Shown here piece after piece: positions 14,098 through 52,178 of a stretch of DNA of 64,000 bases. The notes under the pieces are model-generated. The model ran no database searches and was not told where the DNA came from. It worked only from the letters and a program-made list of their open reading frames with translations. How positions within the stretch are numbered: position 1 is the first letter of the stretch; each line of letters starts with the position of its first letter. The position numbers and the translations under genes are program-made. This stretch comes from Escherichia coli (GTDB lineage Bacteria > Pseudomonadota > Gammaproteobacteria > Enterobacterales > Enterobacteriaceae). The stretch lies in NCBI RefSeq assembly GCF_003334765.1, contig NZ_QOWT01000001.1; one strand, 5' to 3'.

Positions 14098-14754
14098 CTA
14101 GCGTAATGGAATGATATCGCCTTGCCAACCCTGTGATGAACGCTGACCGACTAACAATAATGAACCACGATCGGCGCGAACGATGAGACGACCATATTCA
14201 TCCCATAGTGCACTGTTACCACGGGCATTTGCCATCAGCACGGCAATCGAGTACTGATGTGAAAAAAATTGTAAGCGACGGGCCGACGCCAGCAGGTCGG
14301 GTTCTCCCAGACATTGCCCTGTAGTAAACAGTGAACAGGTCGGGTCCATATCCATACCTTGCGGTTGTTCATCGACCACCGTGATGGTTCTGGAACGACG
14401 GCCCAGACATGCACCATGACTCTGATGGTAGATCCCAGGCGTTTTTCGCCACGGTGCGAACACCGCAATTCCACGAATAAAGCGATCGTTATATTCAACG
14501 GGAAGGCCGGCAATGATGGTCATTCGCCAGGTCGTTGCGGCATAACAAAGCGGGTCTAACAGTGAGAGATCGGGTGGGGCAGGAAGGGCACGTCGCGAAT
14601 AATCACACCCCAGTAAAGAAAGCGATGGAAAAACTAACAGCTGACATTGTTGCCTGGCGGCGGCCCTCACAAACTCCAGATGATGAGCTACCTGTTCGGT
14701 GAGTGAGGTTTTACGAGGCTCATATTGCGCTGCTGCAACTTTCCAGAACGACAT
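14098..14754 (-). CDS. yobB: carbon-nitrogen hydrolase (nitrilase-superfamily) protein YobB
   Basis: ORF 218 aa (MSFWKVAAAQYEPRKTSLTEQVAHHLEFVRAAARQQCQLLVFP...). Confidence 0.85.
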   Translation of the reverse strand: MSFWKVAAAQYEPRKTSLTEQVAHHLEFVRAAARQQCQLLVFPSLSLLGCDYSRRALPAPPDLSLLDPLCYAATTWRMTIIAGLPVEYNDRFIRGIAVFAPWRKTPGIYHQSHGACLGRRSRTITVVDEQPQGMDMDPTCSLFTTGQCLGEPDLLASARRLQFFSHQYSIAVLMANARGNSALWDEYGRLIVRADRGSLLLVGQRSSQGWQGDIIPLR

Positions 14755-16487: not shown

Positions 16488-16829
16488 ATGATGAAAAAAA
16501 GTATTCTGGCGTTTCTGTTACTCACCAGTTCTGCAGCGGCGCTGGCTGCACCGCAGGTGATTACCGTCAGTCGTTTTGAAGTGGGTAAAGACAAATGGGC
16601 GTTTAATCGCGAAGAGGTGATGCTGACTTGCCGACCGGGTAATGCTTTGTATGTTATTAATCCGAGTACCCTCGTGCAGTATCCTTTAAACGATATCGCA
16701 CAAAAGGAAGTTGCCAGTGGGAAGACCAATGCCCAACCCATTTCGGTGATTCAGATTGATGATCCTAACAATCCCGGCGAAAAAATGAGTCTGGCACCGT
16801 TTATAGAACGAGCTGAAAAACTCTGTTAA
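16488..16829 (+). CDS. yebY: DUF2511 periplasmic protein YebY
   Basis: ORF 113 aa with signal peptide ([20 protein letters not shown]...), third gene of yobA-yebZ-yebY. Confidence 0.88.
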
Positions 16830-16868
16830 TTACCTAAAATAGCCTTTTGATTTCCAATAAAAAAACCG

Positions 16869-16910
16869 CCTCAGTTCTTTCACCAGAACGGGCGGTTTTT
16901 AACATTTCAG
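16869..16910. terminator. bidirectional intrinsic terminator (yebY 3' end / RyeA 3' end)
   Basis: stem ccgcc...ggcgg flanked by A7 upstream and T5 downstream. Confidence 0.6.
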
Positions 16911-16973
16911 CTGATGACCACCACGCTTTTTATTGACCATTTTGCACGCAAACTGGAAAACCTGGCGTCGTCA

Positions 16974-16981
16974 TCTATTCT
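16974..16981 (+). promoter_or_regulatory. sigma-S type -10 element of sdsR
   Basis: CTATTCTT resembles the sigma-S extended -10 (CTATACT), about 7 nt upstream of the inferred SdsR 5' end. Confidence 0.45.
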
Positions 16982-16987
16982 TAAAGG

Positions 16988-17090
16988 GCAAGGCAACTAA
17001 GCCTGCATTAATGCCAACTTTTAGCGCACGGCTCTCTCCCAAGAGCCATTTCCCTGGACCGAATACAGGAATCGTGTTCGGTCTCTTTTT
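16988..17090 (+). ncRNA. sdsR: small RNA SdsR (RyeB)
   Basis: GCAAGGCAACUAAGCCUGCAUUAAUGCC...ACCGAAUACAGGAAUCGUGUUCGGUCUCUUUUU matches my recollection of SdsR, ending in an intrinsic terminator. Confidence 0.8.
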
Positions 17091-17224
17091 ATCTGTTAAA
17101 AGCCAGAAGCATTTCCTTCGCTGACTTTATAGTCAACCATAACACACACTCTACTGTCTGAGTCCAGCGTTTTTTAACATTCTTGTTAAGATTATGTGAT
17201 CTTTAGCGCGGGAGGAAAATATTG

Positions 17225-17881
17225 ATGAAACAGCCTGCGCCCGTTTATCAGAGAATTGCGGGTCATCAATGGCGACATATCTGGCTTTCTGGCGATATAC
17301 ACGGTTGTCTTGAGCAGTTGCGCCGCAAATTATGGCATTGTCGTTTTGATCCGTGGCGAGATTTACTTATCTCAGTGGGAGACGTTATCGATCGTGGGCC
17401 GCAAAGTTTACGTTGTCTGCAGTTACTGGAACAACATTGGGTTTGTGCGGTAAGAGGCAATCATGAACAGATGGCGATGGATGCGCTGGCATCCCAGCAG
17501 ATGTCTTTGTGGTTGATGAATGGCGGCGACTGGTTTATTGCGCTGGCAGATAATCAACAGAAACAAGCGAAAACGGCGCTGGAAAAATGTCAGCATTTGC
17601 CCTTTATTCTTGAAGTACACAGTCGCACCGGCAAGCATGTTATTGCTCATGCCGATTATCCAGATGATGTTTATGAATGGCAAAAGGACGTTGATTTGCA
17701 TCAGGTCTTGTGGAGCCGCTCGCGATTAGGTGAACGCCAAAAAGGGCAGGGAATTACAGGTGCTGATCATTTCTGGTTTGGTCATACACCGTTGCGACAT
17801 CGCGTGGATATTGGCAACCTGCATTATATTGATACCGGTGCTGTCTTTGGGGGCGAACTGACTCTTGTGCAATTGCAATAA
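17225..17881 (+). CDS. pphA: serine/threonine protein phosphatase 1 (PrpA)
   Basis: ORF-track from TTG 17222; ATG at 17225 (MKQPAPVYQRIAGHQWRHIWLSGDIHGC...) gives 218 aa; metallophosphoesterase GDxHG and GNHE motifs. Confidence 0.9.
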   Translation: MKQPAPVYQRIAGHQWRHIWLSGDIHGCLEQLRRKLWHCRFDPWRDLLISVGDVIDRGPQSLRCLQLLEQHWVCAVRGNHEQMAMDALASQQMSLWLMNGGDWFIALADNQQKQAKTALEKCQHLPFILEVHSRTGKHVIAHADYPDDVYEWQKDVDLHQVLWSRSRLGERQKGQGITGADHFWFGHTPLRHRVDIGNLHYIDTGAVFGGELTLVQLQ

Positions 17882-50447: not shown

Positions 50448-52133
50448 TTGAAGAAGGTTTGGCTTAACCGTTATCCCGCGGACGTTCCGACGGAGATCAA
50501 CCCTGACCGTTATCAATCTCTGGTAGATATGTTTGAGCAGTCGGTCGCGCGCTACGCCGATCAACCTGCGTTTGTGAATATGGGGGAGGTAATGACCTTC
50601 CGCAAGCTGGAAGAACGCAGTCGCGCGTTTGCCGCTTATTTGCAACAAGGGTTGGGGCTGAAGAAAGGCGATCGCGTTGCGTTGATGATGCCTAATTTAT
50701 TGCAATATCCGGTGGCGCTGTTTGGCATTTTGCGTGCCGGGATGATCGTCGTAAACGTTAACCCGTTGTATACCCCGCGTGAGCTTGAGCATCAGCTTAA
50801 CGATAGCGGCGCATCGGCGATTGTTATCGTGTCTAACTTTGCTCACACACTGGAAAAAGTGGTTGATAAAACCGCCGTTCAGCACGTAATTCTGACCCGT
50901 ATGGGCGATCAGCTATCTACGGCAAAAGGCACGGTAGTCAATTTCGTTGTTAAATACATCAAGCGTTTGGTGCCGAAATACCATCTGCCAGATGCCATTT
51001 CATTTCGTAGCGCACTGCATAACGGCTACCGGATGCAGTACGTCAAACCCGAACTGGTGCCGGAAGATTTAGCTTTTCTGCAATACACCGGCGGCACCAC
51101 TGGTGTGGCGAAAGGCGCGATGCTGACTCACCGCAATATGCTGGCGAACCTGGAACAGGTTAACGCGACCTATGGTCCGCTGTTGCATCCGGGCAAAGAG
51201 CTGGTGGTGACGGCGCTGCCGCTGTATCACATTTTTGCCCTGACCATTAACTGCCTGCTGTTTATCGAACTGGGTGGGCAGAACCTGCTTATCACTAACC
51301 CGCGCGATATTCCAGGGTTGGTAAAAGAGTTAGCGAAATATCCGTTTACCGCTATCACGGGCGTTAACACCTTGTTCAATGCGTTGCTGAACAATAAAGA
51401 GTTCCAGCAGCTGGATTTCTCCAGTCTGCATCTTTCCGCAGGCGGTGGGATGCCAGTGCAGCAAGTGGTGGCAGAGCGTTGGGTGAAACTGACCGGACAG
51501 TATCTGCTGGAAGGCTATGGCCTTACCGAGTGTGCGCCGCTGGTCAGCGTTAACCCATATGATATTGATTATCATAGTGGTAGCATCGGTTTGCCGGTGC
51601 CGTCGACGGAAGCCAAACTGGTGGATGATGATGATAATGAAGTACCACCAGGTCAACCGGGTGAGCTTTGTGTCAAAGGACCGCAGGTGATGCTGGGTTA
51701 CTGGCAGCGTCCCGATGCTACCGATGAAATCATCAAAAATGGCTGGTTACACACCGGCGACATCGCGGTAATGGATGAAGAAGGATTCCTGCGCATTGTC
51801 GATCGTAAAAAAGACATGATTCTGGTTTCCGGTTTTAACGTCTATCCCAACGAGATTGAAGATGTCGTCATGCAGCATCCTGGCGTACAGGAAGTCGCGG
51901 CTGTTGGCGTACCTTCCGGCTCCAGTGGTGAAGCGGTGAAAATCTTCGTAGTGAAAAAAGATCCATCGCTTACCGAAGAGTCACTGGTGACTTTTTGCCG
52001 CCGTCAGCTCACGGGATACAAAGTACCGAAGCTGGTGGAGTTTCGTGATGAGTTACCGAAATCTAACGTCGGAAAAATTTTGCGACGAGAATTACGTGAC
52101 GAAGCGCGCGGCAAAGTGGACAATAAAGCCTGA
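50448..52133 (+). CDS. fadD: long-chain fatty-acid-CoA ligase
   Basis: ORF-track frame from 50382; annotated-length 561 aa starts at TTG 50448 ([22 protein letters not shown]...); AMP-binding signature [12 protein letters not shown]. Confidence 0.88.
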
Positions 52134-52153
52134 GCGTTAAGTCAGTCGTCAGA

Positions 52154-52178
52154 CGCCGGTTAATCCGGCGTTTTTTTT
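52154..52178 (+). terminator. intrinsic terminator downstream of fadD
   Basis: stem cgccgg/ccggcg followed by T8. Confidence 0.85.

Follow-up and report, generated by a model that had tools for sequence, protein, structure and literature searches.

The interval between yebY and pphA in the window, by which we mean the whole 64,000-nucleotide stretch of Escherichia coli DNA that was analysed, is almost certainly (at a probability of about 0.97) the sdsR/ryeA locus of E. coli K-12, where two small RNAs (sRNAs) are produced from opposite strands. The SdsR/RyeA pair is already known: its RNA ends, promoters, regulation and targets have been published, and both genes are annotated in the reference genome. 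The original prediction, which had presented the locus as a known one rather than a new one, is therefore correct in the light of the K-12 annotation and the literature. Biologically, the locus stands out in three respects: it is the type example of RNA-RNA toxin-antitoxin pairs, it encodes a regulator under sigma-S control that acts on mismatch repair, efflux and envelope genes, and mobile DNA uses it as an integration site. It also has value for calibration, because a reading made without any tools hit the mapped start nucleotide of SdsR and inferred the terminator of RyeA correctly.

Identity and conservation of the locus

A 4001-nt stretch of the MG1655 genome (NC_000913.3, 1921500-1925500) agrees, when reverse-complemented, with the window from position 14694 without a single difference, and a position k in the MG1655 genome is converted into a window position w by w = 1940194 - k. 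The identity of the locus, its coordinates, the sequence features of its promoters and terminators, and its exact agreement with K-12 are direct observations of the present study. The 481 nt around the locus were found at an identity of at least 95% in 5426 of the 5426 complete E. coli genomes. The location between yebY and pphA, which had been predicted, also holds, since both the open reading frames and the annotation of NC_000913.3 place yebY at 16488-16829 and pphA at 17225-17881, both on the plus strand, on the two sides of the sRNA genes. The latter gene encodes phosphoprotein phosphatase 1 and has a GGAGG ribosome-binding site upstream, at 17211-17215.

When the whole window was scanned with Rfam at gathering thresholds, four matches were obtained, two of which lie within the interval and belong to the SdsR and SraC/RyeA families. 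Both families were matched over the full length of their models with scores far above the gathering scores, and these matches, together with the genes that RefSeq annotates in the identical sequence of K-12, bear out the naming of the two RNAs as SdsR (RyeB) and RyeA (SraC).

The treatment of the two genes differs among sequence records. NC_000913.3 annotates both sdsR and ryeA, but a PGAP-annotated MG1655 record lists neither, and the records listed from our two genome searches show only yebY and pphA under the match or, with an 88-nt query, "none". Most automatic annotations thus appear to lack SdsR and RyeA, even though both give strong Rfam matches.

SdsR and its promoter

SdsR (RyeB) lies on the plus strand at 16988-17090 as an sRNA of approximately 100-104 nt, a placement based on Rfam, RefSeq, RACE and primer extension. 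The Rfam model SdsR_RyeB (RF00111) matches 16991-17090 (plus strand) from position 1 to position 100 of its 100 positions, with 114.4 bits (gathering score 38; E 1.8e-21) and with zero non-canonical pairs flagged. The annotated gene sdsR (b4433; NC_000913.3 1923104-1923207, minus strand) maps exactly onto 16987-17090 of the window (plus strand, 104 nt). Primer extension, RACE and in vitro transcription have shown that the RNA starts 1 nt downstream of the formerly annotated 5' end, which corresponds to 16988 (Choi 2019, PMC6610125), and the plus-strand interval that had been predicted for SdsR, 16988-17090, begins at exactly this nucleotide. As for the 3' end, the published RACE ends at +100 to +102 correspond to 17087-17089 (PMC6610125), and the RefSeq gene ends at 17090. 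The whole RNA folds with a z score of -4.05 into three hairpins that agree with the Rfam consensus structure. The synteny rule for SdsR, namely its position downstream of yebY (PMC3333887), applies here as well, with yebY at 16488-16829 followed on the same plus strand by SdsR.

The intrinsic terminator that had been proposed for the 3' end of SdsR was found both by a terminator scan and by folding. This Rho-independent terminator occupies 17056-17090 on the plus strand and consists of an 11-bp stem (17056-17084) with a 7-nt loop, followed by CTTTTT. It has been reported to be leaky, with read-through reaching pphA (PMC6610125). The K-12 stem has a G at 17076 that forms a G.U pair, whereas the copy in strain 6883 and the Rfam consensus have an A that forms a Watson-Crick pair, and the weaker K-12 stem might contribute to the reported leakiness. 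Compared with the SdsR/RyeB family (RF00111, b4433), the RNA encoded in the window has the same sequence as the K-12 gene, a full-length model match and the same three-hairpin structure, and it likewise lies downstream of yebY on the same strand, with a sigma-S type promoter carrying C at -13 and an intrinsic terminator. There is no substantive difference, and only the RefSeq start of 16987 against the mapped start of 16988 and the G.U pair can be mentioned.

The promoter of sdsR carries a sigma-S type extended -10 element, TCTATTCT, at 16974-16981 (plus strand), with T at -14, C at -13 and TATTCT at -12 to -7. A sigma-S-like -10 element just upstream of SdsR had been anticipated as CTATTCTT (16975-16982), in which the C is -13 and TATTCT is -12 to -7 relative to 16988; it proved to be the box mutated in the published promoter mutant, in which exactly the -10 box TCTATTCT is swapped out (primer PM_SdsRR; PMC6610125). 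An A/T-rich discriminator beginning with TAA directly follows the -10 element, and the candidate -35 element, TGGAAA at 16954-16959 (-34 to -29), is separated from it by a 16-bp spacer. Fröhlich et al. gave C at -13, T or G at -14, C at -8, an A/T-rich discriminator and a 16-bp spacer as the criteria for the sigma-S selectivity of sdsR promoters, C at -13 being the hallmark (PMC3333887), and at the sequence level all five, including the C at -8, are present in the sdsR promoter of the window. RNA polymerase holoenzyme with sigma-S alone transcribes only sdsR in vitro (PMC6610125), and SdsR has been shown to depend on RpoS (PMC3333887).

The -10 motif is not distinctive by itself, because a search of the 64-kb window for TCTATTCTTAA with at most one mismatch returned 1 match against 0.66 expected by chance, and the motif therefore gains its weight only through its position and the published promoter mutants. 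A scan for the sigma-70 consensus flagged neither the sdsR nor the ryeA promoter, and its sole match lies at 16813-16840 (plus strand), at the end of yebY. This outcome is expected, since the sdsR promoter is of the sigma-S type and ryeA, with its extended -10 promoter, has a weak -35 element.

It is barely conceivable that the interval encodes a small protein, instead of or besides the non-coding RNAs. Two plus-strand reading frames exist in a mechanical sense, one of 63 amino acids starting with TTG (16933-17124) and one of 28 amino acids starting with ATG (16914-17000), but neither is annotated in NC_000913.3 or in the PGAP-annotated MG1655 record, and neither start is preceded by a Shine-Dalgarno-like sequence. 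The longer frame, moreover, starts upstream of the mapped SdsR start and crosses a structured RNA with strong covariance-model matches on the two strands. The shorter frame, MTTTLFIDHFARKLENLASSSILKGQGN, is located between the SdsR start site and the terminator hairpin described below; no ribosome-binding site is obvious for it, it is unannotated in K-12, and it is probably spurious. The reading of the interval as a pair of non-coding RNAs is therefore kept in what follows.

RyeA and the hairpin at its 3' end

RyeA (SraC), the antisense RNA, extends from 17128 to 16857 on the minus strand (272 nt), as determined by exact mapping of ryeA (b4432; NC_000913.3 1923066-1923337, plus strand). It holds the full complement of SdsR (17090-16987) in addition to a 38-nt 5' leader and a 3' tail of approximately 130 nt. 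The Rfam model SraC_RyeA (RF00101) matches 17094-16950 on the minus strand at positions 1-145 of 145, with 175.1 bits (gathering score 37; E 2.9e-40). Compared with the SraC/RyeA family (RF00101, b4432), the RNA encoded in the window thus has the same sequence as the K-12 gene and a full-length model match, and it is likewise wholly antisense to SdsR, its promoter being of the sigma-70 extended -10 type and its terminator intrinsic. The point of difference lies in the model, which represents just 145 nt (17094-16950) of the 272-nt transcript and leaves out both the 5' leader (17128-17095) and the terminator-bearing 3' tail (16949-16857).

RyeA has its own promoter and its own terminator, and its ends are consistent with published RACE and in vitro transcription. 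The extended -10 element of its sigma-70 promoter, TGTTATGGT, is situated at 17144-17136 on the minus strand, with TG at 17144-17143 and the hexamer TATGGT at 17141-17136. In the published ryeA promoter mutant (primers PM_RyeAF/R) the TGTTATGGT box is swapped out, and RNA polymerase holoenzyme with sigma-70 alone produces almost only RyeA in vitro (PMC6610125). Three adjacent start sites were reported at approximately 17130-17128, the most downstream of which, AAAGTCAGC at 17128, is the 5' end in vivo (PMC6610125). Minor internal 5' ends found by RACE at +33 and +36 correspond to 17096 and 17093 (PMC6610125), and the 5' edge of the Rfam model, at 17094, coincides with these ends at the border of the SdsR duplex.

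At the other end of RyeA, a two-way hairpin occupies 16859-16900 and can be read on both strands, with a CCGCC...GGCGG stem, an inner GTTCT/AGAAC pairing, seven A on its left and five T on its right. Its core stem is 16866-16895, and the minus strand reads CCGCCCGTTCTGGTGAAAGAACTGAGGCGG followed by seven T at 16865-16859. The minus strand folds at -20.6 kcal/mol (z = -4.2), with 0 of 200 shuffled sequences folding as well, and the plus strand at -19.8 kcal/mol (z = -5.3). Because it folds on both strands, begins 30 nt past the stop codon of yebY (16827-16829) and is flanked by A7 and T5, the hairpin has the form of a bidirectional terminator for RyeA and yebY. That it terminates RyeA is established in the literature, given the 3' ends in the U-tract and Rho-independent termination in vitro; its action on yebY is putative, the hairpin being placed to terminate that gene as well. 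In 3' RACE of RyeA, 20 of 20 clones ended at +261 to +270, where +261, +263, +269 and +270 correspond to 16868, 16866, 16860 and 16859, and in vitro transcription yielded a product of approximately 270 nt whose termination was attributed to a Rho-independent mechanism (PMC6610125).

These data allow two earlier proposals to be refined. A minus-strand terminator for RyeA had been put at 16869-16910, and the hairpin is indeed real, with RACE ends at its base and in its U-tract, but its core is 16866-16895. The interval proposed for the sRNA pair as a whole, 16868-17160, includes the 5' end of RyeA at 17128, but the 3' end of RyeA (16857 in RefSeq, 16868-16859 by RACE) lies at 16857-16859, or at 16866-16868 when trimmed, and so up to 11 nt to the left of 16868. 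A simple terminator scan did not report the hairpin, which most likely reflects a limit of the scan rule, as the stem has one bulge, and is not evidence against a terminator.

The hairpin might alternatively serve yebY only, and the real RyeA might be an RNA of approximately 145 nt that ends near 16950, where the Rfam model stops; the distance of 30 nt from the yebY stop codon and the good fold of the plus strand would agree with such an arrangement. This is highly improbable, however, in view of the RACE clones, all of which ended at 16868-16859, and of the RyeA of approximately 270 nt made in vitro (PMC6610125). The RefSeq RyeA of 272 nt, which ends at 16857, and the seven U that follow the minus-strand hairpin also argue against it, and an SraC species of approximately 150 nt has been explained as an RNase III-dependent processing product (PMC3333887). 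The hairpin is accordingly regarded as the terminator of a RyeA of full length.

Regulation and mechanism

What is said here about the targets, the RNA ends and the dependence on sigma factors, and about mutual degradation and transcriptional interference, comes from the literature. SdsR is an Hfq-associated trans-acting sRNA (PMC3333887); in E. coli it pairs with the mRNAs of tolC, mutS and yhcB, and in Salmonella with that of ompD (literature including PMC3333887 and PMC6610125). SdsR and RyeA degrade each other (PMC6610125), and RNase III has been implicated in this process (PMC6610125, PMC3333887). Transcription of ryeA interferes with the sdsR promoter, and the expression of pphA, which is co-transcribed, comes mainly from transcripts that begin at the sdsR promoter and read past the leaky SdsR terminator (PMC6610125).

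Combined with the layout of the locus, these points give the following mechanism. SdsR is transcribed from its sigma-S-selective promoter on entry into stationary phase or under stress, up to the leaky intrinsic terminator at its end. RyeA, of approximately 270 nt, is transcribed with sigma-70 from the extended -10 promoter 38 nt beyond the 3' end of SdsR, and crosses the entire sdsR gene and its promoter in the antisense direction before stopping at the hairpin whose position would also allow it to terminate yebY. Its restraint on SdsR takes two forms. One is the formation of a perfect duplex of approximately 100 bp, upon which both RNAs are degraded, with RNase III implicated; the other is interference of the convergent ryeA transcription with the firing of the sdsR promoter, which also lessens read-through into pphA. 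SdsR in excess is toxic through repression of yhcB, and RyeA counteracts this effect.

On account of this toxicity and of its neutralisation by RyeA, the pair has been called an RNA-RNA toxin-antitoxin system. The toxicity of SdsR was seen under overexpression, through yhcB repression, with RyeA acting as the antitoxin (PMC6610125). Among RNA-RNA toxin-antitoxin pairs, SdsR as toxin and RyeA as antitoxin are the founding example itself (PMC6610125), and both names occur in toxin-antitoxin reviews and in TADB 3.0. Unlike the toxins of type I systems, SdsR is a trans-acting sRNA and not a peptide-coding mRNA. The same architecture, in which an antisense RNA antagonises a trans-acting sRNA that it overlaps, with processing by RNase III, is the topic of an eLife 2021 paper (PMC8687705), which mentions SdsR and RyeA too. 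The sequence concerned is unrelated and the likeness is one of analogy only.

The functional importance of RyeA has been debated, and sraC is poorly conserved outside its overlap with sdsR (PMC3333887). RyeA could be functionless as an RNA, so that only convergent transcription matters or the transcript is a largely dispensable by-product, SdsR being the sole product under selection. In line with such a view, only about half of the enterobacteria studied were found to carry sraC, its promoter varies in position (in Salmonella and Shigella it is shifted upstream by approximately 35 bp), and deletion of the promoter raises SdsR only approximately 1.5-fold (PMC3333887); moreover, pphA is lowered by the transcription of ryeA and not by the RyeA RNA itself (PMC6610125). 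RyeA-mediated degradation of SdsR, however, delays the appearance of SdsR, and RyeA has antitoxin activity (PMC6610125). In addition, the ryeA promoter and leader (17092-17135), as part of a query covering 17048-17135, were found at an identity of at least 95% in 5424 of the 5426 complete E. coli genomes. On balance a functionless RyeA seems unlikely, and we continue to regard RyeA as an RNA that acts on SdsR.

Interrupted copies of the locus

Of the 5426 complete E. coli genomes, 237 (approximately 4%) have a split locus, in the sense that no single match spans 80% of the 481-nt query, and 239 extra match places were found with this query. The 88-nt query over the SdsR terminator (17048-17135) gave a near-complete single copy in 5424 genomes and 236 extra places, which means that the SdsR-terminator segment occurs twice in most of the split genomes. 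Such a duplication is as expected for site-specific integration. Four split genomes, two with a prophage and two with an insertion sequence (IS), were inspected individually, and in these cases the prophage or IS, inserted at or near the SdsR terminator, parts the RyeA promoter and leader from the remaining locus.

In the prophage cases (locus segments L003 6250-6345 and L006 2955-3081), the two kinds of junction come from different strains. In strain 6883 a lambdoid prophage lies directly to the right of an intact sdsR, with its integrase and excisionase genes first and nleC further in; at this left junction identity with K-12 ends at 17091, and the 3' arm of the terminator has two substitutions. 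In strain Z1323CEC0009 the right junction consists of the tail-fibre/pin end of a prophage and a partial copy of the locus from approximately 17060, after which come the RyeA promoter and pphA. The shared core is thus about 17060-17091, a range that is approximate because the attR junction was taken from a strain other than the one that provided attL. When attR was sought in the 50 kb to the right of attL in strain 6883, the prophage was found to run into ydfJ/ydfI and not into pphA, which suggests a rearrangement between prophages. A search of a phage collection with the SdsR terminator region returned two short and weak matches, one of 37 nt at 89% identity in Salmonella phage ZC-S1_prp and one of 32 nt at 91% in an Actinobacillus phage, which are too little to name the integrating phage.

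The two IS cases (loci L004 and L007) differ in position. In strain 17MR471, ISApl1 is inserted at approximately 17095, which puts it between the terminator of SdsR and the promoter of ryeA. In FDAARGOS_944 an IS1A transposase gene (IS1) is found immediately to the left of approximately 16997, within the first 10 nt or so of sdsR.

The prophage cases of E. coli resemble the insertion hot spot at ryeB in Salmonella, where, according to a summary in PMC7380047 of Balbontin 2008, the attachment site of phage PhiW104 is the last 23 bp of ryeB. Insertions could reset the SdsR/RyeA/pphA circuit in the split strains, as described for PhiW104 in Salmonella. It seems quite unlikely that the parts of RyeA outside the SdsR overlap, namely the 3' tail (16857-16986) or the 5' leader (17091-17128), themselves act in trans or as a sponge and that strain-specific insertions reset the circuit; according to PMC6610125, no trans function of RyeA has yet been reported.

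Other RNA families in the window

The SdsR/RyeA pair had been considered the only trans-acting RNA that could be supported in the window, a view that overlooked a full-length match to sroD, a second known sRNA family. This Rfam match lies at 52092-52177 on the plus strand (115.2 bits, E 1.4e-22) and corresponds to K-12 1888017-1888102, a segment that takes in the 3' end of fadD together with the intergenic region between fadD and rnd, for which NC_000913.3 has no annotated RNA feature.

A further Rfam match, to the "cspA thermoregulator" (135.5 bits), is located at 32583-33043 on the plus strand, or K-12 1907151-1907611. Its assignment to cspA was rejected, as the position is that of the yobF-cspC transcription unit, covering the cspC coding sequence and the region upstream of it. 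The match is to a paralogue and is driven mainly by the part that encodes the cold-shock protein.
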